From a virus, in IMG/VR virus record IMGVR_UViG_3300042475_005534, positions 1 through 64,000 of that record: a stretch of 64,000 bases of DNA. One strand, written 5' to 3'. Below the pieces are notes generated by a model that saw only the letters and a list, made by a program, of their open reading frames with translations, was not told where the DNA came from and made no database searches. Below are positions 47,372-63,209 of this stretch, piece after piece; position 1 is the stretch's first letter; each line of letters opens with the position of its first letter. The position numbers and the translations under genes are program-made.

Positions 47372-47400
47372 GTGATTAGTGGTTGAATAGAAAAACGAAA

Positions 47401-47438
47401 GCCCGCCCAGCAAGCAGTGCGCACTGCTGAGAAAGGGC
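47401..47438 (-). promoter_or_regulatory. Conserved leader hairpin motif, copy 1
   Basis: TCAGCAGTGCGCAC, core at 47421-47430. Confidence 0.7.
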
Positions 47439-47441
47439 AAT

Positions 47442-47465
47442 AAAAAAGCCGACCCATTGGCCGGC
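47442..47465 (-). terminator. Intrinsic terminator
   Basis: GCCGGCCAATGGGTCGGC followed by TTTTTT on the minus strand. Confidence 0.7.
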
Positions 47466-47516
47466 GAGGTGGTGAGTTATGCGACAGTGGAGGCAGTAGC
47501 TTGCGCCCCCGTGGAA

Positions 47517-47921
47517 TTAAAGATTCGACTCTATCAAGTCAGCGATCTGAAGGAACGAAAAACCGTTGTCATTAACATCGGTCAGATTTTGACTGCTTAG
47601 GTCATATTCGTGGTTAGCGCAGGAAGGGTCGTCAACCCTAAAGTCGGGCAAACTGACGTTGAACTCCCCTGTCAGCGCGAAGTCGGGATCAACAGCAATT
47701 ATTCCTGCCCACTTGGCAACCTCCCCAGGGAGAAGCGCGTCGCAGCGCAGATAGGTCGTGTCTTTGTCGTCCCACCCTGGCCCACCCTGGTCGCGATCGT
47801 AGAGATCGCAGAGGACCCCCAGACAGCAGTAAGTGTCCCCGCAGCGGAGCTGGCCAATGCCCTGCTGGTAGTTACCTGAGCGCAGGGCGTCGACCCAGAG
47901 TTTTTTGATGTGTTCGTGCAT
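47517..47921 (-). CDS. Conserved phage hypothetical protein
   Basis: WVDALRSGNYQQG.GQL...YCCLGVLCD...SF.QIADLIE. Confidence 0.75.
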   Translation of the reverse strand: MHEHIKKLWVDALRSGNYQQGIGQLRCGDTYCCLGVLCDLYDRDQGGPGWDDKDTTYLRCDALLPGEVAKWAGIIAVDPDFALTGEFNVSLPDFRVDDPSCANHEYDLSSQNLTDVNDNGFSFLQIADLIESNL

Positions 47922-48217
47922 GAGAATTACCGGCTCAGGGCCGGGGGGAGGGGATGCGGTAAAAGGGGTTTTCGTAGCGATGAATGACTTCCATGGCGGC
48001 TTGGACTTCCGCCCTGATCAGTCCTTGAACGTAGCGATGTCTATCATCCTGGTGGGCGTTCCCACACTTGAGTGCCATATCAATAGCAGCAACATGCCTG
48101 GCAAGAGCGGCGTAGGCATGAGCCAGATCTGGTTGGATGATTTCGGGCGTTTCCATGAATAGGCCTGGTTGGGTGATCTCGGTCATTTCGATTCGTGTTG
48201 GAAGCGAGGGAAGCGTT

Positions 48218-48616
48218 TTACCCATCAGGGAGAGCCGCTATAGCGCGGCGGAGGATTGCTTTGTGGGCAGGTCGATAAGTTGGCACGCCGGCTTCTATGG
48301 CATCAAAGTGCGCCTCAAGCGCTTCCAAGGCCTGCTCCTTCAAGCTCGGCGGCTTGGGGCGTCGGGCGACGCGGAGATCATCGATCACGGCTTGTGGATA
48401 CCACTCGGCACGTAAATGATGCAAGCATGCTTCCAGCTCAGCATCTGCAGCGGCCTGAATCTCCGGCTCGCGCTGGTCCCAGGCCCATCGGGCGGCCTGG
48501 GCAATTAAATAATCAGAGAGTTTGTCATAGTCGGGATAATCCCATGGAGCTTCTTTTCTCCATTTGACTCGCATCTCTTGAGGCGGGCTGCTGGGGTGCT
48601 GCTGTTGTTCAGTCAT
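48218..48616 (-). CDS. Hypothetical protein
   Basis: ADAELEAC...RRPKPPSLKEQAL motif. Confidence 0.65.
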   Translation of the reverse strand: MTEQQQHPSSPPQEMRVKWRKEAPWDYPDYDKLSDYLIAQAARWAWDQREPEIQAAADAELEACLHHLRAEWYPQAVIDDLRVARRPKPPSLKEQALEALEAHFDAIEAGVPTYRPAHKAILRRAIAALPDG

Positions 48617-48756
48617 GGGTTTAGGTGTTGAACTCAGAGGTTTTTCCGGATAGTTGGATTAGGCGGTCAACACCAGGAGTCAGTCATCGTCAAAGAAGGG
48701 TTGGGCGCCGAACAAGGCAACTTCCACGGCAGGGGGAGCAATCAAAAGTAGTTGTT

Positions 48757-48978
48757 TCATGGGGTAAGGGGGTCACAAGCCCGGGCGAGGTGAGTCACGA
48801 CGTCTTCGTAGTAGATCCAGCGCCAGCATTGGACGTAGGCGCCGTCTTCGTCTTCCCTGCTAATCTTGGCGTCGTCGTCGAACTCAAGTTCGCCATCGCG
48901 GCCATAGAGTTCGTTGGCGACCTGGCGGAGGACCTCATCGTTGGGACCTGGAAATAGGTCAGGCATTGAGTGGCTCAT
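48757..48978 (-). CDS. Hypothetical protein
   Basis: DGELEFDDDAKIS...GAYVQCWRW. Confidence 0.6.
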   Translation of the reverse strand: MSHSMPDLFPGPNDEVLRQVANELYGRDGELEFDDDAKISREDEDGAYVQCWRWIYYEDVVTHLARACDPLTP

Positions 48979-49175
48979 GGCAGGAAGTAAGCAGTAGCCC
49001 CAGGAGAAGTGGCTTCCCCTTGGCTGACGCCGATCAGCCTGCGAGAGGTGTCGAGCGTGCGCCACTCCGAGCGGTAGGGCCAGCGGTCGTTGACAATTCG
49101 CGGATGAATGTTGATACCTGCTGTTGAGAGGCGATTGATTTCAGAAAAGAACTGGTTGCGGTCGACGGGTTTCAT
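48975..49175 (-). CDS. Hypothetical protein
   Basis: 66-aa coupled ORF. Confidence 0.55.
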   Translation of the reverse strand: MKPVDRNQFFSEINRLSTAGINIHPRIVNDRWPYRSEWRTLDTSRRLIGVSQGEATSPGATAYFLP

Positions 49176-49233
49176 TGGGCTTTGAACTCAGAGGTTGTTC
49201 CGGATAGTTGGATTAGGCGGTCAGCACCAGGAG

Positions 49234-49398
49234 TCAGTCATCGTCAGACTCTTCTGCGATGTCGATCTGTCGCTGAACCCAGTCCCAGTAGCCGAGACGG
49301 GTGTCGCCCTCAAGGGCTTCGTGGGCCCAGTCACTAGGCGGAAAGGCTGGGTGTTCACCCCAGTGGCCGCCGTAAAGGGAATCCAAATGGATAGTCAT
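49234..49398 (-). CDS. Small phage protein (54 aa)
   Basis: WGEHPAFPPSDW..E...GDTRLGYWDWV. Confidence 0.6.
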   Translation of the reverse strand: MTIHLDSLYGGHWGEHPAFPPSDWAHEALEGDTRLGYWDWVQRQIDIAEESDDD

Positions 49399-50138
49399 TG
49401 CGAAATGCGAGAACTGAGTGAATAAGGGAGGGGCTCACCGTGCAGCACAACAAACGTCAGTGGTGGACACAACGCTTCTCGTGCATCACAGGAGGTTCGC
49501 GCCAGGATGTGAGCAATCCCGGGCAGGGTGAGATGGCGACCTGGGATTGATCTGGGCCAAGCCAGGGCAAACCGGTAGGTAGCCAAGTGGTGTGGATCAT
49601 CAATGAGTTGATCCAGCCGAACTCTCCCCTGAAGAAGCAGGTAGAGATCGGTAGCCAGGAAACGCAGCGCCGCATGCAAGGCACCCAGGATCAAGGTCAT
49701 TGTCCAGGGCCTCGTAGTGAAATGCGGCTGCGATGAAGCCCCCGTATTCCGGGTGCTCAGGGAGGGGATCTCCCTCAAGGAGCCAGTCCCGTTCAGGGAT
49801 CGGCTTTCCGTCGTGGTGGAAGGGTGCATACCAGGTGCCTTCATGGAGGGACCATCCAGCAGAACGTCGCACACGGGCGACAGGGCTCAGAAGTAAGACA
49901 AGTCTGTCAAGGATGTTGATCATTGGGATAAGTGGCACAGGCTAGGGTCTGGGAAGGTGACAACGCTCGTCAGCAATCACAACAACGCACGGACCATAGG
50001 CCCGCTCGTGTTGTCTTGCAAGCCGTGCGAGGTCTCTGGCAGTGCCATTGGCCTCGAGGAAGGGTTGCTTTTTGTTGGGCTCGTAGATCTTGAGGGTCAT
50101 GATGAGTCAGGAGGGGTGAGTGGAGGGAAGGAGTGGGA

Positions 50139-51536
50139 TCAGTTGGCGCCGATGCAGGCAGCAGTAGCGGCGAGGGCTGGCGGGGTGGACTGCTCCATCA
50201 AGGAGGCGACAGCCTTGGCCCAGATGGCAGCTTGCGCCCGGTCGTGTTGCACGCTGCCGTCAGTGCCGCAGTCGTGGGCCAACTCATGGACTAGGACCGA
50301 TAGGAAGGATTCCATCGATACCAGGGAGCAGCGGGAGACCCTGATTTTTCCAGTGGAGGCGTGATGGGTCCCGAGGATGGTGGGACTAGAGAAGTCGACG
50401 ATGCTGACGCGCCCGAGCAGGGGTGCCAACTCGAGCGCAAGTCCAGCGCCGCCGACCAATCCCATGCCACGCAGGTAGATCACCTGCTCGCTTTCTGTGA
50501 GATCAGCAATGGTGTAGGTCTGAGTGATGGCACCGACCTCGCTCTTTTTGATCTGATCAAGATCAAGGTCGCTGCCCTTGAAGAAATCACAGAGGAGCTT
50601 GGAGGAGAGGATTCCCATCCGTCCGTAGTGGCCGGCCTCCTTGTAGTCGGAGGCGGAGTGGACAGGGATGGCGGTGTCGCCATGGGCATCTCGGAAGAGT
50701 CCCTCGACGCAAGCGCGGAGGCCATGATCGGGAGTGGCGAACTCGTAGTAGCAGAGGTCTTGCTTGCCAGAAGCCAGGAGATCCAGGACTTGCTGGGCCA
50801 CGGATTCGGAGCCGATGCTGTCGGTGAATGCTTCTCGGCTCTCCTCGAAGTGGTTAAACAACTGCTCCCACAGCTTGACCCTGTTGTACTTGGCGTCATA
50901 GCTGTTGACCATGCGCCGGTCCCGATCGGTCGAGGCATGGAGAAAGTTGTAGCCGTACTGAAGGTTGTCATCGCCTTCCACCCAGATGCCTTTGACGTAG
51001 GACTGGCTGTGGAATTTGGGCTCCATCAGGACCTGGCCGCTGGTGGTCTTGATGGCTGTTGTGTCCTGGAAATCGAGGAAGCGATCACGGAAGGAACGCC
51101 ATTCGGCAAGAGTGATTTGGACTTCAACGACGAAATCCTCTGCGGCCCTAGGGAGATGACGGGTGCGGATGGTCAGAACGTCCTGGCCGAACTCCTTGGA
51201 TGGAGCAATGAGTGGCGTCCAGGATTCGTCACCATTGAGGAAGCGGATCTGACGACCAGCCCGGGCTAGAGCAAGGGCGCCGAGCTTGAGGCCTTCACCG
51301 AAGTGACCGCGCTGGGAGTCATCACCAGCCTTGGTGGTCTGGCCCATGAGCCAGACATTGCGCTGCAGCTTGGCGCCACTGCTACTGACACGCAAGTGGC
51401 GGCCGGTGTGACTGATGGAGAGCTCGTGGCCGATATCACGGGCATCGAGGGCGTTCTGGATGACTTCGCGAACACCCTCGTAGATGCCCCAGTCACTGAC
51501 GTATTCGGGGCTGATGGTGAGCTGAAATGTTGCCAT
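50139..51536 (-). CDS. GHKL-type ATPase with C-terminal HExxH motif
   Basis: WGIYEGVREVIQNALDA, GHFGEGLK, VLVHELAH. Confidence 0.75.
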   Translation of the reverse strand: MATFQLTISPEYVSDWGIYEGVREVIQNALDARDIGHELSISHTGRHLRVSSSGAKLQRNVWLMGQTTKAGDDSQRGHFGEGLKLGALALARAGRQIRFLNGDESWTPLIAPSKEFGQDVLTIRTRHLPRAAEDFVVEVQITLAEWRSFRDRFLDFQDTTAIKTTSGQVLMEPKFHSQSYVKGIWVEGDDNLQYGYNFLHASTDRDRRMVNSYDAKYNRVKLWEQLFNHFEESREAFTDSIGSESVAQQVLDLLASGKQDLCYYEFATPDHGLRACVEGLFRDAHGDTAIPVHSASDYKEAGHYGRMGILSSKLLCDFFKGSDLDLDQIKKSEVGAITQTYTIADLTESEQVIYLRGMGLVGGAGLALELAPLLGRVSIVDFSSPTILGTHHASTGKIRVSRCSLVSMESFLSVLVHELAHDCGTDGSVQHDRAQAAIWAKAVASLMEQSTPPALAATAACIGAN

Positions 51537-51574
51537 GAATGAAATGAGGTAGAGAGTTCAGGGATAAGGGGAAC

Positions 51575-51614
51575 TGCGCACCGAAACAGGCAGTGTGCAC
51601 TGCTGAGTGGGCCC
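51575..51614 (-). promoter_or_regulatory. Conserved leader hairpin motif, copy 2
   Basis: TCAGCAGTGCACAC, core at 51597-51606. Confidence 0.7.
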
Positions 51615-51656
51615 AACGAACTAGGAATCAGCGGCTCCGGGGAAAGCGCTGAATAC

Positions 51657-52088
51657 TCAAACCACTGAGCGCTGTGGGGGTGCTTCCTTGAAAAGATGTC
51701 TGTAGGCTCCTCGCGGCATGAGCCAATCTGTTCTCCATTCCCCATCGGAAGAGAAGGAGAAAGCGGGGCAGTGGTGGGCTATACGCAAGAGACAGAGACA
51801 GACGGCTAGGTCATAGGGTTTGTGCGCTGTTTTGCAGAAGTTGAATTCCCTATCAGCGCGACCAGGACTGAATGGGACATGAAAAGTCTCGTAGCCGTCC
51901 CCACCAGCACCGTTAAGTCGAATTTCCGACTTTGTTACAAGAGGAGGGAGATTGTTGTCGTATTCGGCCTGTAGAGCGATTCCCTGCTCCCCGCAGTACG
52001 AGACAATCTTGCGAGTATCTCTGCAGATTGCAGACCATTGATCAAGGGTAAAGTCTTTGGATTGCTGCCAGTAATGTGTGTAGCCCAT
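51657..52088 (-). CDS. Conserved phage hypothetical protein
   Basis: MGYTHYW...FNFCKTAHKPYDLAV...SSDG. Confidence 0.7.
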   Translation of the reverse strand: MGYTHYWQQSKDFTLDQWSAICRDTRKIVSYCGEQGIALQAEYDNNLPPLVTKSEIRLNGAGGDGYETFHVPFSPGRADREFNFCKTAHKPYDLAVCLCLLRIAHHCPAFSFSSDGEWRTDWLMPRGAYRHLFKEAPPQRSVV

Positions 52089-52156
52089 TTGATAGTGGGT
52101 GCAGGTGGAAATAGAAGGAGAAGGGCCGCCAAGCGCGGCCCCGTTGGCGGAAGCGA

Positions 52157-53245
52157 TCAGGCATGGACCAGTTCGCGGGCGACTTCATTGGCCCGCTTGA
52201 TGACACCAGCGCCGGTGCCGAAGAGGGCCGAGTGGATGCGGCGCTTGCCGGCGCCTTGGGTCTTGCCGGAGGATTCGACTTCGGTGACGGCATTGAGGCC
52301 CCAGTAGAGGGTGCCTGCAACGCCCGGGATGTCACGGCCGAGGCCGTAATTCCAGGCGTGCTCGAGCTTGGCCCACTTGCGGGGCATGTCTTCGATGGAG
52401 CCAGGGCGGGTGTCGCCGTTGTCCATGCGGACAGATGGGATTTGCTTTTCGTAGACCTGCTCAAGGAAGTGCCGGTAGAGATCGGTGGTCATGGGCACCT
52501 CCCGCATGGCGCGGTACTCATCGACGACCTGGGCAAAGCTCTGGCGAGCAATGTCGATACTGGAGAGGATGCGATCGATTTGGGCCACATCGTTCTCGGT
52601 GTGCTTGATGGTGAACTGCCGGCCGTGGCGGTTAGCGTCGTTCATGGCGTAGCCGAGGGTGTTCAAACAGACGACCCTGGTGTCAGTGAAGATCCCTCCG
52701 AAGGCAGTGCTGCCGTCGTGGCCGAGGTAGCCGACGATGTTGCGGTAGACCTTGTCACCAGGGATGACCTGCTGGTCAGTGCCGCGGATCTTGGCAGTGA
52801 AGGCCACCTTGGCACCCTCGCGCAGGACGATCACAGCATCCATGTCGCATTCTTCCCGTAGGGCAGAAGCGAAATCCAGCAGGCGCTGGTTGGGGATGAT
52901 CTTGTAATCGGGGCTGGCGGTGCCGAGGATCTTGCGGGTGTCGGGACGCCAGATGGCAACACGGCTGTCCGCCATGCTGATCAGGTGCTGATACGCGGCC
53001 TGGTGGATGGCTTCTCCACGCTCTTGCGGGGTAGAGAAGGGCTGGTCAGCCGCCAGGGCAATGGCATCGAGGAGCTCAGGATTGCTGAGGTCGCCGGCCC
53101 AGAGCTGGAGCTTCTCCACAGGGAAGAGAGCTCCGTAGCGACGGAAGGCGTCAGGGGCGGGCATGGTGCCTTCGATGACGTCGCCTTCGGGGTGCCAGGC
53201 GGCAGTGCCGTGCATGAAGACTGCAGAAGTGACTTCGTGTGCCAT
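52157..53245 (-). CDS. DUF932-family protein
   Basis: MAHE...AWH, YKIIPNQ, HDGS, TRVVCLNTL, GTLYWGLNAVTE. Confidence 0.85.
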   Translation of the reverse strand: MAHEVTSAVFMHGTAAWHPEGDVIEGTMPAPDAFRRYGALFPVEKLQLWAGDLSNPELLDAIALAADQPFSTPQERGEAIHQAAYQHLISMADSRVAIWRPDTRKILGTASPDYKIIPNQRLLDFASALREECDMDAVIVLREGAKVAFTAKIRGTDQQVIPGDKVYRNIVGYLGHDGSTAFGGIFTDTRVVCLNTLGYAMNDANRHGRQFTIKHTENDVAQIDRILSSIDIARQSFAQVVDEYRAMREVPMTTDLYRHFLEQVYEKQIPSVRMDNGDTRPGSIEDMPRKWAKLEHAWNYGLGRDIPGVAGTLYWGLNAVTEVESSGKTQGAGKRRIHSALFGTGAGVIKRANEVARELVHA

Positions 53246-53288
53246 GGGATTTAAGAAATGGATGAGAAAGTGAAAGGAGAAGACGGGG

Positions 53289-53873
53289 CTAGCGGCTGGG
53301 GAGGGCCACTACCCCTTGCTGAAGGGATTGATTGATTTGGGCGATGGCTGCAACCATGTCGGCTTTGGAGCCGCCGATGTTTTCAGCTCTGACCTGGGCG
53401 ATGGATTCCCAGTCAGGACCGCAGACGCAGACATTGATGAACGTCGGCTTGCGGTTCTTGACTCGACCCTCACCCTTTGAGGTGATCAGCTTGACTGCCT
53501 GGGTAGTCAGATCAAGAACGAGCAGCGCCCCTAGAAGGCTTTTGATGGAGTTGGAAGTAGAAACCTGGCCAGGTTCTCTGTCCACGGGACGCTCATCAGC
53601 GGGCAGAAGCAGACGAAACGGCTGAGTAGGAGCACCAGAGATCATGCGTACCTCGAGGTAATCACGAGGGCCTGACTCGGTGTTCCCTGCTAGCTGGATC
53701 AAGCGGAGGGCAGTGATTGCCCCGCGGATCTCAGGGAAGATGACGTCCTTGCGGTCATACAGGTAGAAATTGGCTAGGGGGTCGATGCCGATGGTCATCG
53801 GCTGAGGAGGGGGAGGAGTGGGAGTCGCCCAGTGGGGTAGCTCGGGTGATTGAGTGGATAGAGAGGAAGTCAT
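53289..53873 (-). CDS. Hypothetical protein
   Basis: 194 aa from MTSSLS, downstream of motif copy 3. Confidence 0.55.
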   Translation of the reverse strand: MTSSLSTQSPELPHWATPTPPPPQPMTIGIDPLANFYLYDRKDVIFPEIRGAITALRLIQLAGNTESGPRDYLEVRMISGAPTQPFRLLLPADERPVDREPGQVSTSNSIKSLLGALLVLDLTTQAVKLITSKGEGRVKNRKPTFINVCVCGPDWESIAQVRAENIGGSKADMVAAIAQINQSLQQGVVALPSR

Positions 53874-53887
53874 GGGCAAATGAAATG

Positions 53888-53922
53888 AACGCAGCAGGTC
53901 GTGCGCACTGCTGAACAGGCGC
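53888..53922 (-). promoter_or_regulatory. Conserved leader hairpin motif, copy 3
   Basis: TCAGCAGTGCGCACGACCTGCTG, core at 53905-53914. Confidence 0.7.
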
Positions 53923-54703
53923 AAGAATTTGTCACATGGTCATGCCTTTGACGTCGTCCTCACTGAGTTCGACGCCTGCTGCCCTGTAATAGGGAATACA
54001 AGCAATAGCTGTAAGTTTCTGAGCGACGTCAGCTCGGCGTGCCTCGTTGACGACAGGCGAGATCAGCCTGTATATCATGCAGTAGCAGGAGGCAATTTCA
54101 CTTGCGATCCGGACGAGGGCAGCTGGAAGGGTTTGAGCCCCCTCCTCCCTGGCCCGCTTACGGGCGGTATGGGGATGGGGCGGTCGATGCCCGTTGCTGC
54201 CGTGTCCTAATTCCGCGGTAGGGAGACAGTCAGGATCTCCCCACCCGGCCTCAGGGTTAGGAGGGATCGAAGGCTCTTCCATTTGCTGCGGCTCATGGAA
54301 GTCCAATTCGAGGACAGAAGCACCGAGAGTTGGTTCGAAGCGGAGCTGGCTTTCGTCGAACTGAAATCCAGGTTTGATGATGTCTGAAATTGCGGGCGAG
54401 AAGACAGCGACGGACTGCCCGCCTGCGTTGGTGGGTTTATCGAAGTAGGAATAGTCCCAGCCGGGGATTTTGTAGCTGGGCTTGGGATGGGTTGTGACGG
54501 TGTGAATTGGCATTGGAGGGATGAAAGGAAAGAGCACATCGCGCTCAGCTGCTCAGGAGGGAGCAGGACTGATTCGCCGATGCGCTCAAATTGGTAGAGA
54601 GGGAAGAGGGTGATGAGTGCGCTTTTGGCCCGACCATTGATGGGCGTGATTAGCCCATCTCCGGTCGGGGTGTAACTCACTTGCAGCCATGGCGGCTGGA
54701 GCG

Positions 54704-55546: not shown

Positions 55547-55554
55547 TGAAGCAG

Positions 55555-55580: not shown

Positions 55581-55605
55581 GTTGCTACCGAAACAGATGT
55601 TGGTC

Positions 55606-56025: not shown

Positions 56026-56052
56026 GATCAGAGGAAAGGGTAAAGGGACATT

Positions 56053-56093
56053 GGCCCGCTCAACAGGCAGTGTGCACTGCTGAGAAGGCTCAC
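56053..56093 (-). promoter_or_regulatory. Conserved leader hairpin motif, copy 4
   Basis: CTCAGCAGTGCACACTGCCTGTTGAG, core at 56074-56083. Confidence 0.7.
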
Positions 56094-56132
56094 AAAACAG
56101 GAACTAGACTGAGAGGGATCCAGGATCGAGTT

Positions 56133-56636: not shown

Positions 56637-56818
56637 TGCGATACGCAGGGGAGGAGACTGAGCTGGCGCAGTTGATCGAGGACGCCATGCGGCGCGATTT
56701 AGAGCTGGCCATTCTTCAGCACTCCCTGCTGGAGGGATTCCGCCGGAAGTTCGCAACTGAAGACCTGGCGGGCCTCCAGCTGCCTGGATGGGATGCACTA
56801 ATGCATGACATGGGGTAA
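56636..56818 (+). CDS. Hypothetical protein
   Basis: TGATG coupling, 60 aa. Confidence 0.45.
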   Translation: MRYAGEETELAQLIEDAMRRDLELAILQHSLLEGFRRKFATEDLAGLQLPGWDALMHDMG

Positions 56819-56845
56819 GTTGTCGGGCATTGCGCAACACACGTC

Positions 56846-57244
56846 ATGCAGTGCGAATGCGGTGGTGAGACAAAGGTGGCTCACACCTACAAGGGGGAAG
56901 ACGGGATACGAGTGAGAGCTAGGAAGTGCGACTGTTGCAGTCAAATGCTGTGGACGTCTCAACAGCCAGAGGAGGTGATCCCAGCTGAGCTGAGGCAGTG
57001 GACAGATGGGAAGCCATGCCGTGCGGCGGAGCCGAGACAGAAGGGGTCTCGCATGCCACCGACGATCGAGGAGTGGGAGGCCAATCCAGAGATGGCCTAT
57101 GGCCTCAAGGCTGACGAGTTGAGGACGCTGGCAAGGCTCAAGGGTTTAACTGGAGCATGGATGTTCAACAAGACTGAGTTGCTGGAGTTCCTGATGGAAG
57201 GAGCCTGGCAGACGGGCCTAGCGAGTGAGAACCACGCGCAATAG
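56846..57244 (+). CDS. NrdR-like zinc ribbon plus Rho-N-like helical domain
   Basis: MQCECGGETKV..T......VRARKCDCC and LKADELRTLARLKGL......KTELL. Confidence 0.55.
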   Translation: MQCECGGETKVAHTYKGEDGIRVRARKCDCCSQMLWTSQQPEEVIPAELRQWTDGKPCRAAEPRQKGSRMPPTIEEWEANPEMAYGLKADELRTLARLKGLTGAWMFNKTELLEFLMEGAWQTGLASENHAQ

Positions 57245-57395
57245 GGCCCTCCAAGGAAGAAGTCCTTGGCATCGTTAGCTGCTGCAACCCCGAGGTAGAG
57301 GAATAGGGCCGCAGAAATGGAGAGCCGGAGGCTTTTACCGAGCTTAGGTCGATGGAGAGAAGTCATGGGGTTGAGAAAGAAGTGAAGTGTGTTGG

Positions 57396-57827
57396 TCAGG
57401 AGGGCGGAAGACAGATCACACGAAAGCCGATGTAGTCGTCGGTATAGCCGGGCAGGTCAATGCCGCGGTGAGCCAAGCGGCGGTCTGAGGGGAGACTGTC
57501 CCAGCCGCCGCCGCGCAATACCGCCCGGCATGGTGCTTCTTCCTGGGGGAGGCACACCACGCGAAACCCGATGACGTCGTTGGCATAGCCGGGCTGGTCG
57601 CGGTAGCGGTAGACCGAGCGGCAGTTCCTGGGGAAGTTGAACCAGGAGCCACCGCGCATTGACAAGTCGCAGCGTGCGGTGGAGGCCCCTGGAGGGACGC
57701 ACACCACGCGGAAACCGATGTTGTCGATTGGCTCGCCGGGTTCTCCGGGAAAGCGATGGGCAGAGCGGCAATGCCTAAGGAAGAAGTCCCAGGGACCGCC
57801 GCGTAACGCCCGATTGGGGATCGTCAT
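57396..57827 (-). CDS. Protein made of three FGE/CLec C-terminal (DGR variable-region-like) modules
   Basis: MTIPNR...; 3 x RGG.W...CRS..R...GFRV(V/I)C; ATGA-coupled to the upstream ORF. Confidence 0.8.
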   Translation of the reverse strand: MTIPNRALRGGPWDFFLRHCRSAHRFPGEPGEPIDNIGFRVVCVPPGASTARCDLSMRGGSWFNFPRNCRSVYRYRDQPGYANDVIGFRVVCLPQEEAPCRAVLRGGGWDSLPSDRRLAHRGIDLPGYTDDYIGFRVICLPPS

Positions 57828-58276
57828 GGTGTCATCCCCCGCGGAAGACAGATCACACGAAAGCCGAGGTCGTAGTCGGCATAGTCGGGCGAATGGGAAA
57901 TGCCGCGACAGGTCGAGCGGCACCAGGGGTAGCTGAGCTGGGCGTGGGAGCCGCCGCGCATGGTTACCTGCGTGGGCTTGACCCCCAGAGGGAGGCACAC
58001 CACGCGGAAGCCCAAGCCGCTGCTGGCATAGCCGGGCTGGAAGCGTCCGAAGCCGCGGCAGGCCGAGCGGCAGAACCCGGGGTTGTTGCCCCAGGAGCCA
58101 CCGCGCAGTGGCGGTAGCATCCGAGGTGGTGCCACCTCCCGAGGGAGGCACACCACGCGGAAACCGACGAGATCGTCTTGGTAGTGCGGAGCGGCGCGTC
58201 GGTAGGACAAGCGTAAATACGCCTGTTGTTCCGTCCTGAAAAACCAAGTACCGCCGCGTTGCACTTGATACGTCAT
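57824..58276 (-). CDS. Protein made of three FGE/CLec C-terminal (DGR variable-region-like) modules
   Basis: 3 x RGG...GFRV(V/I)CLP. Confidence 0.8.
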   Translation of the reverse strand: MTYQVQRGGTWFFRTEQQAYLRLSYRRAAPHYQDDLVGFRVVCLPREVAPPRMLPPLRGGSWGNNPGFCRSACRGFGRFQPGYASSGLGFRVVCLPLGVKPTQVTMRGGSHAQLSYPWCRSTCRGISHSPDYADYDLGFRVICLPRGMTP

Positions 58277-58677
58277 GACCTGCTCAGCAGGAGGAGCAGG
58301 TCAGAGCGGCGAGCTCGGGAGACCTTGTTGCCGCGGTGCCCCCGCTCGCGAGCCAGGGCACGCAGCTGGGACACATTGAGGCTGAGGTCGATTCCATTGA
58401 GAGCGCAGCGGAAGGCTGTTAGCTCCGGGTCTTCTGTAATGGGCACAGAGAGAGTCATAGGAGGGATGGATTGGGGTTCAGGGGGAGTGAGGCCGAGGAG
58501 GTGGAGATGGAGGGCTGCTAGCTGCTGGCTGCGCTCTTCCAGGGCAAGACGCAGCTGGCCGCCGGCGGCGTAGGAGGCGTCGGCAAGATGCCAGAGCAGG
58601 GCAATAGCAATGCAGAAAAAAGGGGCGGCTTGATGCATGAAATGTCGAAGCCGGCCCCCAATCAGATCGGAATGCAT
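58273..58677 (-). CDS. Hypothetical protein with C-terminal Rho-N-like motif
   Basis: From MHSDLIGG; LNVSQLRALARERG.......RRSDLL. Confidence 0.5.
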   Translation of the reverse strand: MHSDLIGGRLRHFMHQAAPFFCIAIALLWHLADASYAAGGQLRLALEERSQQLAALHLHLLGLTPPEPQSIPPMTLSVPITEDPELTAFRCALNGIDLSLNVSQLRALARERGHRGNKVSRARRSDLLLLLSRS

Positions 58678-58687
58678 GGGCAGGGAA

Positions 58688-59407
58688 TCAATAGGGCCTG
58701 TATTCGTTGCGGCACCACTCGAAGACCTGGCCGTGCATGTCGTAGAGGCCCCAGGCATTGGGTTGGTACTGCTTGACATCGCAGGTGGAATCTGCGTTGA
58801 AGCGTGCCTGGGACTCATCGAGGGTGTCACCGAAAGCGAATTCAGTGGTGGTGCCTGCGCGGCAGGCGTATTCCCACTGTTCTTCTGTGGGGAGGGTGTA
58901 GGTCTTACCTGTAGCCCGGCTGAGGCGGGCACAGAATTCCATGGCGTCATACCAGGAGACGCATTCGACGGGGCGGTCATCGCCCTTGAAGCGTGAGGGA
59001 TCGGGATTGAGATCGCGCTCGACCTTGGGCAGGTTCTCGGCGACCCATCGCCACTGGGCTTGAGTGGTCGGAGTTTCCGCCATCTCAAAGCCCTCGTCGA
59101 TGATCACCTCATGGACCGGCTTCTCATCAGAGAAAGCGGACGGTGAATCAGATCCCATCATGAAGCGCCCTGGAGCGATGGAAACCATCGGCAGGTTGAG
59201 GGCGGAAGCGGAGATGCTGTGATTGGAGGTAGTCATGGTTCCTGAAGAAATGGAAGATGGATGGAGGAGGCGGCAGGGGCGAATCCCGATGATGGGGAGG
59301 GCGCAGGCCTTGTTGACGCTGCCCCGGAGGGTGGCACGGCAGTTGCGTGGTTCGTCACTGATCCAGGAGCCACCGCGCAGCTGCCGATGGGCGTCAAGGG
59401 CTGTCAT
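58688..59407 (-). CDS. FGE-sulfatase (SUMF1/CLec-fold) domain protein, C-terminally truncated or circularly permuted
   Basis: MVSIAPGRFMMGS, EKPVHEV, PVECVSWYDA, LPTEEQWEYACRAG, PNAWGLYDMHGQVFEWC, then stop. One RGGSW module lies N-terminal; alternative start at 59236. Confidence 0.88.
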   Translation of the reverse strand: MTALDAHRQLRGGSWISDEPRNCRATLRGSVNKACALPIIGIRPCRLLHPSSISSGTMTTSNHSISASALNLPMVSIAPGRFMMGSDSPSAFSDEKPVHEVIIDEGFEMAETPTTQAQWRWVAENLPKVERDLNPDPSRFKGDDRPVECVSWYDAMEFCARLSRATGKTYTLPTEEQWEYACRAGTTTEFAFGDTLDESQARFNADSTCDVKQYQPNAWGLYDMHGQVFEWCRNEYRPY

Positions 59408-59766
59408 GGCGCCACCTCCCGAGAGAGGCGGACCACACGAAAGCCGAGGCCGTAGCCGCGGTAGCTACCGACGGGCGGGTCGTCTTCGCGGAAGGCCGAG
59501 CGGCAATAGCTGGGAGCTTCGTCCCAGCCGCCGCCGCGCAGCACCGCCCGGCATGGTGCCACTTCCCGAGGGAGGCGCACCACGCGAAACCCGACGTCGG
59601 TAAGGTTTCCCTCTTCGCCTAAGACGGCCTCACTTAGCTCTGCCTCGTGGCGGCCAGCCGAACGGCAGGTATAGGAGGCTTCGCCATAGGAACCACCGCG
59701 AATGGAGTTTCCCAGGGAAAGCGGTAAATCAAGAGACAGTAGAAAAGGGGACAAGCGATAACCCAT
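59404..59766 (-). CDS. Protein made of two FGE/CLec C-terminal modules
   Basis: 2 x RGG...CRSA.R...GFRVVRL. Confidence 0.78.
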   Translation of the reverse strand: MGYRLSPFLLSLDLPLSLGNSIRGGSYGEASYTCRSAGRHEAELSEAVLGEEGNLTDVGFRVVRLPREVAPCRAVLRGGGWDEAPSYCRSAFREDDPPVGSYRGYGLGFRVVRLSREVAP

Positions 59767-59798
59767 GAGACATCAGAGAGGGGTGCATGCCATGGTGA

Positions 59799-60458
59799 TC
59801 AGGAAGGGGTCACAACAGGCGCCTCTCGGATGAGCCGCAACAGGGATTCCCGCTGCCGGCGAGTTTCGGCGGCCCTGGCGGCGGCCCCGGCGGCGTCCCT
59901 GGCGGCGTCCCAGGCGGCCCAGGCGGCCCCGGCGGCGTCCCTGGCGGCGTCCCAGGCGGCCCAGGCGGCCCTGGCGGCGTCCCTGGCGGCGTCCCAGGCG
60001 GCCCAGGCGGCCCTGGCGGCGGCCCCGGCGGCGGCCCAGGCGTTTTTCTCCCAGACGTTGCCAGAAGCCAGTAAATCCATGCCATCAATAACTGGGTCAA
60101 TAACGGCCTGGATTTCGAGCCGCTGAGGAGGGAGATTCCTTAGGGTTTCACCGAGGAAGGCCCAATGGATCAAGGAGAGGTCTTTACCGTCCGTAGCCAC
60201 AGCGTCGGGGAAGTCGTAGAAGAATTGCTTAGCTTCCTCGAGCGGAAGAGATTCAAAGATGTGTTCCGCGATGCGAAGAATGGACTCAGTGAGCCCAAAT
60301 CGCTCCACAGCAGGAGTGGAGTCGTTTGAATGGGTCAGGCACCCGATGAAGCAGCCTTTGCCGTCTGACCAGTAATTACCCTGGACGACGGAATCCGCCG
60401 TGATGTGTTCGTGGACCTCCTGTTTGAGGAGGTCGGTGTTCTTGGTGAGGGTGGTCAT
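59799..60458 (-). CDS. Phage protein with AAWAAWDAARD tandem repeats
   Basis: KGCFIGC N-terminal domain; GC-rich tandem repeat at ~59868-60041. Confidence 0.75.
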   Translation of the reverse strand: MTTLTKNTDLLKQEVHEHITADSVVQGNYWSDGKGCFIGCLTHSNDSTPAVERFGLTESILRIAEHIFESLPLEEAKQFFYDFPDAVATDGKDLSLIHWAFLGETLRNLPPQRLEIQAVIDPVIDGMDLLASGNVWEKNAWAAAGAAARAAWAAWDAARDAARAAWAAWDAARDAAGAAWAAWDAARDAAGAAARAAETRRQRESLLRLIREAPVVTPS

Positions 60459-60647
60459 AAGAAAAGAATTGAGAGGAGGTTAGCCCGCATGCCATGGCTA
60501 ACAAGTCGCCCGGCACGGCTCTGTAAGAGCGCTAGGACACGCAATTGCTTAATGGCCATGGACTCCAGGAGAGGCCGAGCGACGGCCATGGAAGGGGCCA
60601 CTGGATGGATTAGGGCCCCGCCCGGGTGGATGGGGCCTGGATGTACC

Positions 60648-61211
60648 TCAGAAGGGAACTTCCTCTGAGGTGGGCTCACCCGAGAAGGGAGCCTCGGGCT
60701 CGCTCATCGGAGAGGGGCTATCCAGCCTTGCAACGGGCTGGAAGGACACAACGATCCATTCGGTGTTGCGAGTGCTTACAGGGCCCTCTGGACCGGCAGT
60801 GGTGCCGTGCCAGGGGCGCTCGTATGCAGTGATGCGCACGAGGCGATCGTCTGTGTTGAAGAATTCACCGATGGTCTCAGCGAGTTCGCCGTATGCGGTG
60901 AAGTTCTTCCAGTCGCCGAAGACCCTGGAATTGGTCTTCTTGCTGAGGTATCCATATTGGGCACCAAACTTGATAAAGGCTGTGCCGTTAGGAGTGAAGC
61001 CTTGGCGAGAGCCTTTGGGGGGAGTCCTTTGGAGCCAAAGGGTCTGATTGAGCTGTTCGCCTGAGGACTCCAGCTCAGTGATTCTTGCCTTGGCGGCTTC
61101 GAGCTCAGCGACGAGCTCTTCGTAGATGCCAAAGATGGGCTGTTCTTCGGGAGCTTCAGGTGCCACGGGGGTGGCGGTAGAGGAAGGCTTGGACTTGGTG
61201 GCAGTGGACAT
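60648..61211 (-). CDS. Hypothetical protein, possibly SSB-like
   Basis: WKNFTAYGELAE.I and an acidic tail ending EEVPF. Confidence 0.5.
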   Translation of the reverse strand: MSTATKSKPSSTATPVAPEAPEEQPIFGIYEELVAELEAAKARITELESSGEQLNQTLWLQRTPPKGSRQGFTPNGTAFIKFGAQYGYLSKKTNSRVFGDWKNFTAYGELAETIGEFFNTDDRLVRITAYERPWHGTTAGPEGPVSTRNTEWIVVSFQPVARLDSPSPMSEPEAPFSGEPTSEEVPF

Positions 61212-61233
61212 GGGGATTTCCAGTGAGGGGTAT

Positions 61234-61315
61234 TGAGCCGCACAACAGGCGGTGTGCACTGCTGATTTGGCTCAGTGAATAGGATCAAAGGGAGGGGTGC
61301 CAGGTATGACACCCC
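61234..61315 (-). promoter_or_regulatory. Leader motif copy 5 with upstream GTGTCA-N4-TGGCAC hairpin
   Basis: TGAGCC...TCAGCAGTGCACACCGCCTGTTG...GGCTCA, core at 61256-61265. Confidence 0.75.
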
Positions 61316-61325
61316 AGAAGATACA

Positions 61326-61595
61326 TCAAGCAGCCGCTCGCCGCAGCTGGCGAAGCGTTTGCTGATTATCGAGGCAGAGGGTGCGTGCTGTGGTGACAGC
61401 GGCGACCATCTGCTGGGTGATGGTGAGGCCATCTTGCTTGGCCCAGAGGGCATCAAGGATGACCTCACGGAGGGCTTCGATTTTGCGATCGATAGAGCCT
61501 TGGAGGACCCGCCCAGTGGAGGGGCAGGTCCAGATGCTTGCCCTTGCGAGCAAGCGTAGATCAATAGACAGAGAATGAAGGTTGTTCTCGGTCAT
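61326..61595 (-). CDS. Hypothetical protein
   Basis: 89 aa between repeat units. Confidence 0.55.
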   Translation of the reverse strand: MTENNLHSLSIDLRLLARASIWTCPSTGRVLQGSIDRKIEALREVILDALWAKQDGLTITQQMVAAVTTARTLCLDNQQTLRQLRRAAA

Positions 61596-61601
61596 TGAGG
61601 G

Positions 61602-61738
61602 GTAGCCCGGTTGCTAACCGGGGCGAAGGGATGTGAGCCGTAGACAGCAGGTGGCACTGCTGAGAAGGCTCACTAAAAAAGCCCCACCCGGGGGATAGCC
61701 GGATGGGGCGGGGTAGGGGGTGCCAGATGTGGCACTAG
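61602..61738 (-). repeat. Intergenic repeat unit (hairpin, terminator, leader motif copy 6)
   Basis: CTAGTGCCACATCTGGCACCCCCTACCCCGCCCC...GGGGCTTTTTT...TGAGCC...TCAGCAGTGC...GGCTCACATCC. Confidence 0.85.
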
Positions 61739-61739
61739 C

Positions 61740-61886
61740 TCATCGGTGGATGAGGGGATAGAGGGGGTCGAAGAACAGACCCATGTCGCCATGGCATAGA
61801 GCCAGGCGAAGAATGAAGCCGAGAGCCAGACACCCAGCGAGGTAGGTCTTGGGGTTGGCTTCGGCGAAGGAGGCGATGGTGCGCAT
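61740..61886 (-). CDS. Small hypothetical protein (48 aa)
   Basis: MRTIASFAEANPKTYLAGCLALGFILRL...; fills the gap between two repeat units. Confidence 0.45.
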   Translation of the reverse strand: MRTIASFAEANPKTYLAGCLALGFILRLALCHGDMGLFFDPLYPLIHR

Positions 61887-61890
61887 GTGA

Positions 61891-62024
61891 GTAGCCGGCG
61901 GCTAGCCGGGGGCAAGGGATGTGAGCCGTAGCAGGTGGTGTGCACTGCTGATTTGGCTCAATGGAAAGCCCCACTTGGATGGTTCCGAGCGGGGCGGGGT
62001 AGGGGGTGCCAGATGTGGCACTAG
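61891..62024 (-). repeat. Intergenic repeat unit (leader motif copy 7)
   Basis: Same architecture as 61602-61738; core at 61942-61951. Confidence 0.85.
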
Positions 62025-62212
62025 GTGTACCAGCGGGGATCATCCTCCTCCGGGGAGAGGAGCATGTCCCCTATGGGCATGAAGGAGGAGGAGGAGAAGA
62101 GATCCCATCCGGCGTTGTAGTCGGGATGGGATCGGTAGTCTCCATCGCTATCGATAGCACGCATGTGCATGCATTCGATCGCGGAGCCCATCCAGGCGTG
62201 GTTGATGCTCAT
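62021..62212 (-). CDS. Hypothetical protein
   Basis: 63 aa; its TAG is the CTAG that starts the repeat unit. Confidence 0.5.
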   Translation of the reverse strand: MSINHAWMGSAIECMHMRAIDSDGDYRSHPDYNAGWDLFSSSSFMPIGDMLLSPEEDDPRWYT

Positions 62213-62214
62213 AA

Positions 62215-62433
62215 TCAGTTGATGACAGGGATTTCGGCTACTTGCTCACGGCAGGACGTGTCGAAGAAAGCCTGCATGGAGTGGTCATCTATGGCGTGCT
62301 CACGGCGGGATATTTCGCGGAAGACCTCCATGAGGCGATCATCCACAGATGGGTCTTCCGTGAGGCGGTATTGGTCGGCGAGCTGGTCAGCTAGCTGATG
62401 GAGCTGGAAATCGGAAAGGGATGTAAGGGACAT
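62215..62433 (-). CDS. Hypothetical protein
   Basis: From MSLTSLSD, downstream of motif copy 8. Confidence 0.55.
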   Translation of the reverse strand: MSLTSLSDFQLHQLADQLADQYRLTEDPSVDDRLMEVFREISRREHAIDDHSMQAFFDTSCREQVAEIPVIN

Positions 62434-62440
62434 AGAAACG

Positions 62441-62538
62441 AAGAAGGTGGTGTCCACTGCTGAGTGGACTCAGTAAAAAAGCCCCACTCGGATGACTCCA
62501 AGCGGGGCGGGGGTAGGGGGTGCCAGAGGTGGCACTAG
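62441..62538 (-). repeat. Intergenic repeat unit (leader motif copy 8)
   Basis: CTAGTGCCACCTCTGGCACCCCCTACCCCCGCCCC...GGGGCTTTTTT...TCAGCAGTGGACAC. Confidence 0.85.
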
Positions 62539-62831
62539 AGGGGAGTGTGCTCATGATCAAGGGTGTCGCAGAGGCGATCCCAAATGCTCTGGAGCCTGTC
62601 GGGTCCGGAGCCCCGGAGGCTCTCCCACCAGGCATCACGGGGGCGATACCCGAAGGCATCTTTGTGTAGGTCGCTAAAGAGATCAATGCGGTAGGAATAG
62701 CCCTCGAGCGGGAAGGACTGGGTGGACCAGGCCTCCGGGGAGATATAGGAGCCGTAGATTTCGCGGTCGAAGGATTCCCGTTCTTGCCGCCAAGCAAGGT
62801 CTTCAGGTGAAAGGGTTGCGGAATTAGTCAT
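62535..62831 (-). CDS. Conserved phage hypothetical protein
   Basis: LFSDLHKDAFGYRPR motif. Confidence 0.7.
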   Translation of the reverse strand: MTNSATLSPEDLAWRQERESFDREIYGSYISPEAWSTQSFPLEGYSYRIDLFSDLHKDAFGYRPRDAWWESLRGSGPDRLQSIWDRLCDTLDHEHTPL

Positions 62832-62851
62832 GGAAATTGCGGGTAGCGAAT

Positions 62852-62932
62852 GGATGTGAGCCGTAGCAGGTGGTGTGCACTGCTGATTTGGCTCAATGGA
62901 AAAAGCCCCTGATCCAGTAAAGGACCAGAGGC
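62852..62932 (-). repeat. Leader motif copy 9 with upstream terminator-like hairpin
   Basis: GGATGTGAGCCGTAGCAGGTGGTGTGCACTGCTGATTTGGCTCAATGGAAA is identical to the corresponding part of copy 7. Confidence 0.85.
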
Positions 62933-62939
62933 GAAGGGA

Positions 62940-63119
62940 TCAAGCAATCGCTTGAGTCCGAAGTGTGGCGAGAAGGCGGCGAGCCCTCTCGATGCAGTAA
63001 CTCGTGGACTGGGGCCATAGTCCACGCGCTCCCTTGAGGGGGTAGACGCTAACTGCAACGGTCTCAGGATTGAGAGTGCTGAAGCGGTAGACCCGATCAG
63101 CAAGAATGACGGTAGCCAT
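62940..63119 (-). CDS. Hypothetical protein (59 aa)
   Basis: From MATVILADRVYRF, downstream of motif copy 10. Confidence 0.5.
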   Translation of the reverse strand: MATVILADRVYRFSTLNPETVAVSVYPLKGARGLWPQSTSYCIERARRLLATLRTQAIA

Positions 63120-63182
63120 TGAGGTTGCTGCTGCAATAGCAGTAGTTGTCGGGCGCTTATCTCCCGTGAAAGCGCTATGCTT

Positions 63183-63209
63183 CTCAACAGATGGTGTGCA
63201 CTGCTGAGT
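63183..63209 (-). promoter_or_regulatory. Conserved leader hairpin motif, copy 10
   Basis: CTCAGCAGTGCACACCATCTGTTGAG, core at 63198-63207. Confidence 0.7.

Follow-up and report, generated by a model that had tools for sequence, protein, structure and literature searches.

A repeated, one-stranded stem-loop element heading early gene units of an uncultured lake phage, possibly a PeSL-like promoter cassette

In the early region of a lake phage, an element of about 23 letters is repeated ten times on one strand, with each copy placed ahead of the first gene of a unit. Its layout comprises a T-rich tract, TG, N7 and TCAGCAGTGCACAC. The explanation tentatively preferred here, derived from sequence comparison, is that the element is a composite terminator/promoter/stem-loop cassette resembling the promoter-early stem-loops (PeSLs) of T4-like phages and carrying a phage-specific promoter of a non-sigma70 type.

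Copies of the element and their setting

The window, which is the whole stretch of 64,000 nucleotides that was analysed, contains the ten copies on its minus strand between 47.4 and 63.2 kb (Table 1). Nine of them, all on the minus strand, are the only exact matches to the pattern TCAGCAGTGSRCAC in the window, and the tenth has three mismatches with the family flanks kept. When up to two mismatches are allowed, the window yields 14 matches, whereas 100 dinucleotide shuffles of the window averaged 2.11, peaked at 6 and never reached 14. In the full record of 88,123 bases, the exact pattern was matched nine times in reverse and never in forward orientation, the reversed control is not found on either strand, and no further copies were detected outside 47.4-63.2 kb. 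The element is restricted to the early ORFan region, in which most ORFs have no family matches. Five related lake-phage contigs provide 1-10 additional copies each, giving a full set of 43 copies over six records, and a search of 206,413 bases with a covariance model (R1) returned the known copies only. A single strand is used in every record examined, the orientation strictly following that of the downstream genes.

The initial annotation described the element as new, and the searches agree: no Rfam family reached its gathering score in the 91,123 bases searched for the whole record, cmscan at E<=1 over 46000-64000 returned only a chance-level match to CC2171 elsewhere in the region (28.5 bits; gathering score, 75), and a 12-mer of the element was not found in any phage paper in a literature search.

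All ten window copies are followed in the same orientation by an ATG-started ORF, the first of its unit, at +30 to +88 from the first base of the core, confirming the earlier report of ten same-orientation copies ahead of start codons; the coordinates given in that report are positions inside each copy. Its remark that several copies directly follow an intrinsic terminator applies to five of the ten, where a terminator-like hairpin with a T-run ends 2-4 nt before the TG. Over the six records, 18 of the 43 copies lie 2-4 nt behind a strong hairpin and T-run, and because these structures stand just upstream of the copy, the genes behind them need a new start. No Shine-Dalgarno sequence was found downstream of the element. 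Longer alternative ORFs cross five copies, their upstream parts lacking the coding GC pattern; the motif is kept as nucleotides and the flanks diverge.

Table 1. Positions of the ten copies and of an example of the composite module ahead of the motif (z, fold relative to shuffled 3' halves; bits, covariance model)
Feature	Position	Strand	Core	Hairpin	Upstream	Downstream and relatives
Copy 1	63166..63219	-	63194-63207	long-hairpin type; z -2.37; 58.1 bits	first after 440-bp control region	ORF 62940-63119, ATG +88
Copy 2	62847..62898	-	62873-62886	TGAGCC/GGCTCA hairpin; z -4.21	directly behind terminator 62905-62932	ORF 62535-62831
Copy 3	62422..62475	-	62450-62463, C9G variant	short-leader type, without long hairpin; z +0.44; alternative GTCCAC/GTGGAC stem possible	terminator 62481-62508	ORF 62215-62433, ATG +30
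Copy 4	61912..61963	-	61938-61951	near-duplicate of copy 2	terminator-like hairpin 61965-61995	ORF 61740-61886; cassette missing from relative G001
Copy 5	61624..61675	-	61650-61663, degenerate, TCAGCAGTGCCACC	strong hairpin; z -5.93	terminator 61681-61709	ORF 61326-61595
Copy 6	61224..61277	-	61252-61265	z -4.81		long unit beginning with ORF 60648-61211
Copy 7	56042..56095	-	56070-56083	67.6 bits		ORF 55606-56025, Gam-like gene 54704-55546, ORF 53932-54537; orthologues in G002, G003 and L200 with compensatory stem changes
Copy 8	53873..53926	-	53901-53914, A10G variant	short-leader type; z +1.21; partial covariance-model match	begins ~5 nt past upstream stop codon	ORF 53289-53873 and DUF932 gene 52157-53245
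Copy 9	51565..51618	-	51593-51606	weak hairpin; z -0.60		RIIA-like gene 50139-51536; lineage-specific, RIIA-like genes of G002 and G003 without a copy directly upstream
Copy 10	47389..47442	-	47417-47430	hairpin with T-rich tail; z -3.15	terminator 47448-47465	ORFs 47120-47371 and 46314-47123; last before replication and nucleotide-metabolism genes
Composite module	61965..62025	-			in order: stop codon in CTAG, GTGCCA-N-TGGCAC mini-hairpin, C-rich box, GC-rich terminator with T-run	comparable modules at 62481-62541 and 61681-61738

Conservation of the 5' half and pairing of the 3' half

The conserved block extends contiguously from -9 to +13, with the core occupying 0 to +13. In 35 of 35 copies, T-9, G-8 and core positions 0-8 show no variation, and the TG is present in 42 of 43. 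This 5' half (TG at -9/-8 and the core) is almost invariant even without a pairing partner, as illustrated by T0 and C1, which never change even though 6 of 25 rows (T0) and 6 of 20 rows (C1) have lost the pair. The 3' half is variable, with complementarity kept in 31 of the 43 copies and the long hairpin missing from 12. At orthologous sites the core persists between genomes whose proteins are only 31-41% identical, accompanied by compensatory changes in the stem.

The inverted repeat consists of an outer stem from -9 to -4, which includes the TGAGCC/GGCTCA form noted in the initial annotation, an inner stem from 0 to +6 and the loop TGCACAC-nn, with stems of 13-16 bp and loops of 9-10 nt. 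Since RNAalifold found no consensus structure on a plain MAFFT alignment, the case for structure draws on folds of the individual copies, on a model-fitted alignment and on a permutation test. Of the 31 distinct copies, 22 have a fold that surpasses those obtained after shuffling the 3' half (z<=-2); the outer arms pair at -8.64 kcal/mol with their cognate partners versus -6.76 with non-cognate ones (permutation p 5e-5); and 86.4% of cells are paired in the model-fitted alignment, compared with 30-44% for slid partners. The proposed structure is also borne out by covariation, with 13 cells in four pairs changed on both sides, a level reached in 0 of 500 shuffles. The pair G(+3)/+19 is most commonly G.U (15 of 25 distinct rows), a state from which the initial annotation had argued for a structure formed by one strand; despite it, better folding of the sense than of the antisense strand is seen in just half of the copies (17 versus 17 of 34, Wilcoxon p 0.36), and this argument does not hold overall.

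The reality of the hairpin and the frequent G.U pair favour an alternative in which the element would act in an RNA leader, a reading that we regard as rather unlikely. A long read-through RNA would originate from the control region at 63.2-63.7 kb, and the hairpin would be bound or cut on this RNA, through cassette-separating processing of the RNase III/E type, as a protective 5' stem, or by nut/put-like antitermination reloaded after each terminator. In 12 of the 43 leaders another small hairpin lies ahead of the ATG, and the order motif, gene, terminator, motif permits serial antitermination. There are precedents in the RNase III hairpins repeated between the genes of T7 early mRNA, as well as in lambda nut and HK022 put, all being repeated or leader hairpins of early transcripts with conserved unpaired bases, as here. 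However, a site defined by structure should not have a 5' strand that stays invariant when unpaired, overall folding is without strand asymmetry, and, as strong terminators abut the element, its RNA would exist only through read-through. Additionally, put contains two stem-loops versus one here, and the classical substrates of RNase III have stems longer than 13-16 bp. The first gene after copy 1 differs among G000, G001, G002 and G003, leaving no conserved first gene for an N-like factor and disfavouring an N-like regulator encoded there. An RNase III site of the T7 early type would have an extended stem in each copy, whereas here the stem does not occur at every site (long hairpin 31/43, shuffle test 22/31). 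Among the functions suggested in the initial annotation (phage-specific promoter, RNase III-type processing site, antitermination element, protein-binding hairpin), the evidence leans to the promoter, and the case for an element that is nothing more than an RNase III site or a structure is weakened by the invariance of the unpaired 5' half, the copies devoid of the long hairpin and the location of half of the window copies behind strong terminators.

Comparison with known promoter classes

The initial annotation saw no clear sigma70 elements nearby, and this observation stands: no sigma70-consensus site was found on the minus strand at 46-64 kb, and a -10 element (TAnnnT, 15-19 bp spacer) accompanies 0 of 43 copies. 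As a candidate -35 hexamer, the kTG at -10 to -8 (at -10, T 40% and G 46%), mostly followed by AGC, would provide at best four of six matches to the TTGACA type. Promoters of the sigma54 class, characterized by GG and GC doublets ten bases apart, were also considered and rejected: the GC is correctly spaced from -8 in 42 of 43 copies, yet in place of the required GG, which never occurs, 42 of 43 have TG. On the side of the transcription machinery, Sigma70_r2 and r4 profiles, whose controls worked, matched nothing in the phage, and PF00940 (T7-type polymerase) was silent in the phage and likewise in the control genomes. Neither a polymerase nor a sigma factor emerged when about 60 ORFs, including those of at least 700 aa, were scanned against PHROG and Pfam. 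Only tail-fibre-like ORFs, a repeat protein and a 919-aa protein without polymerase signal (AlphaFold2 mean pLDDT 49) exceed 900 aa, and no virion-polymerase-like ORF was found in the genome.

If the element is a promoter, each copy would signal where transcription of an early unit begins, and the recognised part would be a double-stranded block of about 23 bp, composed of the T-rich tract at -17 to -12, TG at -9/-8 and TCAGCAGTGCACAC at 0 to +13. Given its departure from the housekeeping sigma consensus, the block would require either a putative phage or host factor that redirects host RNA polymerase to it, or a polymerase diverged beyond recognition. The shortest leaders among the 43 copies place the ATG at +28, which suggests initiation within or just after the core. 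Ten of the 13 copies with the ATG at or before +43 have no long hairpin and nonetheless keep the 5' half, and the inverted repeat may be an optional part of the leader, present almost only where the leader is long, serving as a read-through attenuator or insulator or as a stabilising leader structure. If transcription starts inside the core, the covarying stem, which begins at -9, could not fold in the RNA of the unit itself, and selection on the hairpin must act on DNA or on read-through RNA; this selection is left unexplained by the promoter reading.

The contiguous and nearly invariant block before gene units, often right after terminators, is a feature of T7-type promoters, whose block is likewise about 23 bp according to a review (PMC4496689). 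The differences are that a polymerase gene was not detected here (in the PHROG scans, with PF00940 silent in controls too) and that the presumed start has no adjoining A/T-rich melting segment, the block lacking one downstream of the T-tract.

The early promoters of the N4 virion RNA polymerase are described in the same review (PMC4496689) as hairpins with a 5-7 bp stem and a 3-nt loop lying wholly upstream of +1, present in three copies at one genome end and served by an injected polymerase of about 3,500 aa. Inverted repeats ahead of early genes, with some bases conserved and other stem bases varying freely as long as they pair, are found in both systems, exactly as the review describes for N4. 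It is therefore conceivable, but improbable, that the repeat is extruded by supercoiling and that conserved bases in the loop and in one stem strand are read by a polymerase or factor arriving together with the DNA, the remaining stem bases needing only to pair. Folding without strand bias is consistent with an inverted repeat that acts as DNA, the repeat is bordered by an AT-rich flank, and every short-leader copy keeps some small stem involving the palindromic GTGCAC of the core. However, the element has longer stems, larger loops and ten dispersed copies, no giant virion polymerase was found among the ORFs above 900 aa, and short-leader copies, with the ATG at +28, could hardly accommodate a start beyond the hairpin. 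There is a correspondingly small chance that the element adds to the N4-like phages a second, independent example of promoters recognised by their structure. In that event the hairpin, extruded as DNA or present as an RNA/DNA hybrid, would offer its invariant loop and 5' strand to a transcription machine not recognisable by sequence; this machine could be an injected factor or polymerase of a freshwater phage lineage distantly related to cyanophage S-EIVl.

Cassette exchange and likeness to PeSLs

The closest parallel to the promoter reading is offered by the PeSLs of T4-like phages, for which Arbiol et al. 2010 (PMC2839356) and Comeau et al. 2014 (PMC4122927) describe stem-loops overlapping the promoter, G-T pairs, an AT-rich tract that follows the stop of the gene before, and copies that recombine with one another. 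Like the present element, PeSLs are small terminator/promoter/stem-loop composites separating the ORFans of a plastic early region. In both systems the upstream stop codon lies within an A/T-rich tract, the stem-loop may overlap the promoter, the stems contain G-T pairs, and the copies are crossover points at which cassettes are inserted, deleted or replaced between close relatives. In contrast, PeSL promoters match the sigma70 consensus, and the element described here lacks the -10, contains an invariant 14-nt core within the 5' arm and loop of the hairpin, is not followed by a Shine-Dalgarno sequence and resides in a phage that is not T4-like, the nearest cultured relative being Synechococcus phage S-EIVl (42% identity in a portal-like protein).

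Close relatives differ by whole ORFan cassettes, with breakpoints within the motif and terminator modules. Between G000 and G001 they fall at 63110, 62865/62541 and 61964/61738, and contigs from two other lake runs join 62538 to 62865. The role of the module as a breakpoint of cassette exchange was absent from the initial annotation. As a portable cassette, the element would be ordered as upstream stop or terminator, T-rich tract, promoter with embedded stem-loop, leader and ATG, and the conserved terminator and motif modules of about 100 bp would supply homology for ORFan cassette exchange between related phages.

It is very unlikely that the module is mainly a recombination or selfish repeat, persisting through the gain and loss of cassettes that it mediates as a homologous-recombination linker or as the target of a site-specific enzyme, without a role of its own in expression. 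Such a repeat would account for the breakpoints and for near-duplicates within one genome (copies 2 and 4), and hairpin-forming repeats are typical substrates of several recombinases. However, it would not be expected to keep an orientation strictly tied to downstream genes on one strand, a head-of-unit position among genomes with such divergent proteins, or a nearly invariant 23-bp block in a module that otherwise drifts; no dedicated recombinase was found beside the array, the only candidate being a weak integrase-like match at 12292-13449.

Of the 24 lake metagenome runs listed (24 studies), 22 contain 50% or more of the words sampled from the stretch. If the element is a promoter, the block defines the early regulon of an uncultured and widespread lake-phage lineage, and since it would be recognised in a way that differs from sigma70 and has no link to a known phage polymerase, the ORFans should include a new transcription factor or polymerase. 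The PeSL principle, in which regulatory cassettes double as recombination seams, would thereby extend beyond T4-like phages, and the 23-nt block or covariance model R1 would provide a handle for finding the early host-takeover genes of related phages in metagenomes.

Copies of the motif and their distribution

A search of the whole record of the uncultured lake phage (G000; 88,123 bases, G+C content 57.8%), whose bases 1−64000 form the window, located nine exact occurrences of the core TCAGCAGTGSRCAC, all on the minus strand and all within 47.4−63.2 kb. When up to two mismatches are allowed, the window contains 14 matches against 2.11 expected, and none of 100 shuffles reaches this number; at up to three mismatches to the 14-mer, 21 places are found in the whole record, ten of which make up the motif family, including a tenth, degenerate core whose flanks are common to the family. 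Each of the ten copies, numbered from 63.2 kb downward, heads a minus-strand unit as judged by ORF position and codon-position G+C, which bears out the same-strand series of ten described in the initial annotation. That several copies follow an intrinsic terminator is also confirmed, as a G+C-rich hairpin with a T-run ends 2−4 nt upstream of five of the ten. The genes behind the copies are mostly ORFans, the exceptions being RIIA-like, DUF932, Gam-like, and FGE-type proteins, and the replication and nucleotide-metabolism genes below 47 kb are without a copy.

A megablast search of 47000−63500 against GenBank phages returned no close DNA relative. The portal-like protein shares 42% identity with Synechococcus phage S-EIVl, in which the motif is not above chance and the covariance model has no match, and the abstracts of the S-EIV1 literature make no mention of such a motif. 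When viral contigs were scanned with the 14-mer, 77 stretches were returned and four contigs proved to have several copies; relaxed searches revealed further degenerate copies. Metagenome relatives contributed seven copies from L200 and one from L201, bringing the number examined to 43 in six records, which do not represent 43 independent events because G000/G001 and G002/G004/L200 are close kin. The covariance model found no copy beyond the known ones in 206,413 bases of G000 and related records, and the more distant relative L202, with a DUF932 protein 66% identical, showed no copy at up to four mismatches and no analogous repeat.

The phage DNA was found solely in lake-water metagenome runs, with no RNA data set among those listed, and the four runs compared with it consist of DNA contigs. 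A scan of genome contigs gave 76 single, taxonomically scattered matches, with no genome holding several copies. One 38-kb phage contig that is nearly identical (L166, contig C132 of G005) is binned with a lake Pirellulales MAG, where covariance-model matches fall on this contig only and none in the rest; its placement there probably reflects an artefact of binning and is not taken as evidence of the host, being a weak hint at best.

The conserved 5' half and the associated hairpin

With the first core base taken as position 0, a conservation profile of 35 core-anchored copies shows −9 to be always T and −8 always G, core positions 0−8 to be invariant, positions 9−13 to be 77−97% conserved, and a T-rich tract to span −17 to −12, even in copies without a preceding terminator. 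Core variants ending in CACAC, CACAT, and CACAG occur. Conservation 3' of the core is only partial: position +16 is C in 89% of copies, and there is a stretch resembling CTGYT. One L200 copy has TA in place of TG, with its pairing partner base changed to match.

In most copies, −9 to +6 is complementary to a downstream segment, giving the previously noted outer stem TGAGCC/GGCTCA or variants of it, an inner stem TCAGCAG/CTGYTGA, and a loop of TGCACAC plus about 2 nt. Compared with shuffled 3' halves, 22 of 31 distinct copies fold with z ≤ −2 and the other nine do not. The outer 5' arm pairs more strongly with its own 3' region than with those of other copies (mean −8.64 versus −6.76 kcal/mol, permutation p 5e-5; 27 copies, with one of each near-identical pair left out). 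In a model-fitted alignment, which is biased towards structure by construction, 86.4% of cells are paired versus 29.6−43.7% with slid partners, thirteen cells in four pairs carry changes on both sides, and the observed covariation score is reached in 0 of 500 shuffles; RNAalifold predicted 0 pairs on a plain MAFFT alignment of 31 copies. Covariation across homologues, as expected of the structured element initially proposed, is also seen in the orthologous copies before the 139-aa/Gam-like unit, where compensatory stem changes occur across G000, G003, and G002 despite protein identities of just 31−41%.

The initial annotation's case for a sense-strand structure, built on G-U pairs, does not hold overall: folding favours the sense strand in 17 copies and the antisense strand in another 17 (p 0.36). 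One inner pair is G.U in 15 of 25 rows, but other copies have mismatches equal to G.U on the antisense strand. Given this lack of bias, complementarity cannot distinguish RNA from DNA.

Besides the RNAalifold result, the fold criterion speaks against a structure common to all copies: the long hairpin is present in 31 of the 43 and absent from 12, and it tracks leader length, occurring in 25 of 27 copies whose ATG lies at +51 or beyond versus 3 of 13 whose ATG is at +43 or nearer. Short-leader copies share a pyrimidine-rich yTCGTTyC stretch upstream of the ATG, and some form a small alternative stem between −7 to −1 and the core's palindromic GTGCAC. Additionally, 12 of the 43 leaders have a second small hairpin, CCCGG/CCGGG with a loop of 4−7 nt, placed 5−12 nt upstream of their ATG.

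Promoter reading and its competitors

The 5' half is invariant whether paired or unpaired, the distance from TG to the core is fixed, and the T-rich tract is present even without a terminator; the 5' half would therefore be recognised as sequence, with the 3' arm as an accessory. Because strong terminators abut half of the window copies and no other promoter-like sequence is seen, a start signal is the simplest function, and the favoured reading, given slightly less than an even chance, is a phage-specific promoter within a cassette like the promoter-early stem-loops (PeSLs) of T4-like phages. Transcription would start at or directly past the core, since the ATG can lie as near as +28.

The chief weakness of the promoter reading is that the outer stem covaries yet begins at −9, upstream of this putative start, so that selection on the stem would act through DNA or read-through RNA. 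Two rival readings persist for this reason. One, regarded as rather unlikely, is that the motif acts in the leader of read-through RNA, with a role in processing, stability, or antitermination. The other, a promoter formed by an extruded DNA hairpin, as in phage N4, is improbable: the conserved contacts and freely covarying stem bases described in PMC4496689 resemble the pattern here, but the stem and loop dimensions and the giant polymerase of N4 are not matched.

An Rfam search of the record matched no family, in keeping with the undescribed element first suggested, and a literature search with the core sequence gave only unrelated primer-like matches. The earlier impression that clear sigma70 elements are missing nearby was correct: a sigma70-type promoter is rejected by the occurrence of TAnnnT at compatible spacing in 0 of 43 copies and by zero minus-strand consensus sites between 46 and 64 kb, and a sigma54 promoter by GG in 0 of 43. 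A good sigma70-like site, TTGATT-17-TATGAT, faces the opposite (rightward) direction. Sigma70_r2 and r4 domains were not found in the genome, with working controls; a PF00940 search also gave no match, but its control was equally silent. Family scans of about 60 ORFs detected no polymerase. A 919-aa ORF adjoining the early region has 21 homologues, all unannotated; it falls into neither a Pfam nor a PHROG family, and sequence and profile searches of the PDB found nothing similar. Its atlas leads all score <0.8 and its AlphaFold2 model has a mean pLDDT of 49. A search for a second promoter class through shared 9-mers in 27 other presumed intergenic stretches yielded one 11-mer only, in probable coding sequence.

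Across the record, start codons generally lack an upstream Shine-Dalgarno sequence, and the leaders are rich in C and T. The non-coding control region of approximately 440 bp between divergent gene blocks carries, on its minus strand, GCAGCAGC runs in the first half and a pyrimidine-rich second half with three TATACT boxes, and its 436 nt fold no better than shuffles (z +0.71).

Coordinates and states of the features described
Feature	Position or state	Remark
Degenerate tenth core	61650−61663	
First ATG-ORF start, offset from core position 0	copies 1−10: +88, +55, +30, +65, +68, +54, +58, +41, +70, +59	
Copies at ≤1 mismatch	G001 9; G002 5; G003 7; G004 4	one strand per contig
Stem states before the 139-aa/Gam-like unit	G000 GAGCC..; G003 GAGGCCTC/GAGAGGCC; G002 GGGTCCAC/GTGGCCC	
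Second small hairpin, examples	window ~61900−61925, 61605−61632	also G002, G003, L200
Composite module upstream of motif	window 61681−61738, 61965−62025, 62481−62541	similar in G001−G003
Control region	63220−63660	
Sigma70-like site	63736−63764	
919-aa ORF	64450−67209	
Hypervariable stretch	window 58750−58860 and 57450−58180	FGE/C-type-lectin-like gene region
Tail-fibre-like gene repeat zone	G000 86870−88123 and window 1−1300	
dCTP-deaminase-like, dNMP kinase, and thymidylate-synthase-like genes	21639−25098, 32331−34070	

Cassette exchange and other features of the record

G000 and its relative G001 are 93−98% identical over most of the region, and whole small-gene cassettes differ between them. 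Identity is lost at 63110, just past the start of the first ORF, returns across the terminator-plus-motif segment 62942−62865, and is lost again until 62541; a further break, 61964/61738, spans a 48-aa gene absent from G001, and in contigs of two further lake runs position 62538 is joined straight to 62865. As breaks and joins fall at terminator-plus-motif modules, the exchanged units are flanked by these conserved modules. The composite module opens with a stop codon in CTAG, followed by a mini-hairpin of the form GTGCCA-N3/4-TGGCAC; next comes a CCCCTACCCC box and, last, a terminator that is GC-rich and carries a T-run. That the motif is a purely recombinational repeat is the least likely reading and very improbable, as its orientation and position are bound to gene units across diverged genomes. 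An integron attC-like interpretation was set aside, since no integrase lies beside the array and the cassettes are separated by terminators.

Elsewhere in the record, the 127-bp "direct terminal repeat" sits within coding tandem repeats of approximately 168 bp in a tail-fibre-like gene spanning the record ends, and may thus be an assembly effect and not a physical genome end. At 58756−58857, a segment of 75−95 bases is swapped for many different sequences in lake metagenome contigs, with local depth spikes. Three genes lie together, one dCTP-deaminase-like and bearing an HNH insert, one encoding a dNMP kinase, and one thymidylate-synthase-like; jointly they could indicate a modified pyrimidine in the phage DNA, which, if true, would bear on promoter recognition.

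The motif modules resemble in layout the PeSLs of T4-like phages, for which PMC2839356 and PMC4122927 report proven promoter and terminator activity and recombination of copies with each other. Unlike the PeSL promoter, the candidate here has no −10 element and carries an invariant 14-nt core. The cassette principle is already known; the recognition sequence, its embedding in a hairpin, and the phage lineage are new.
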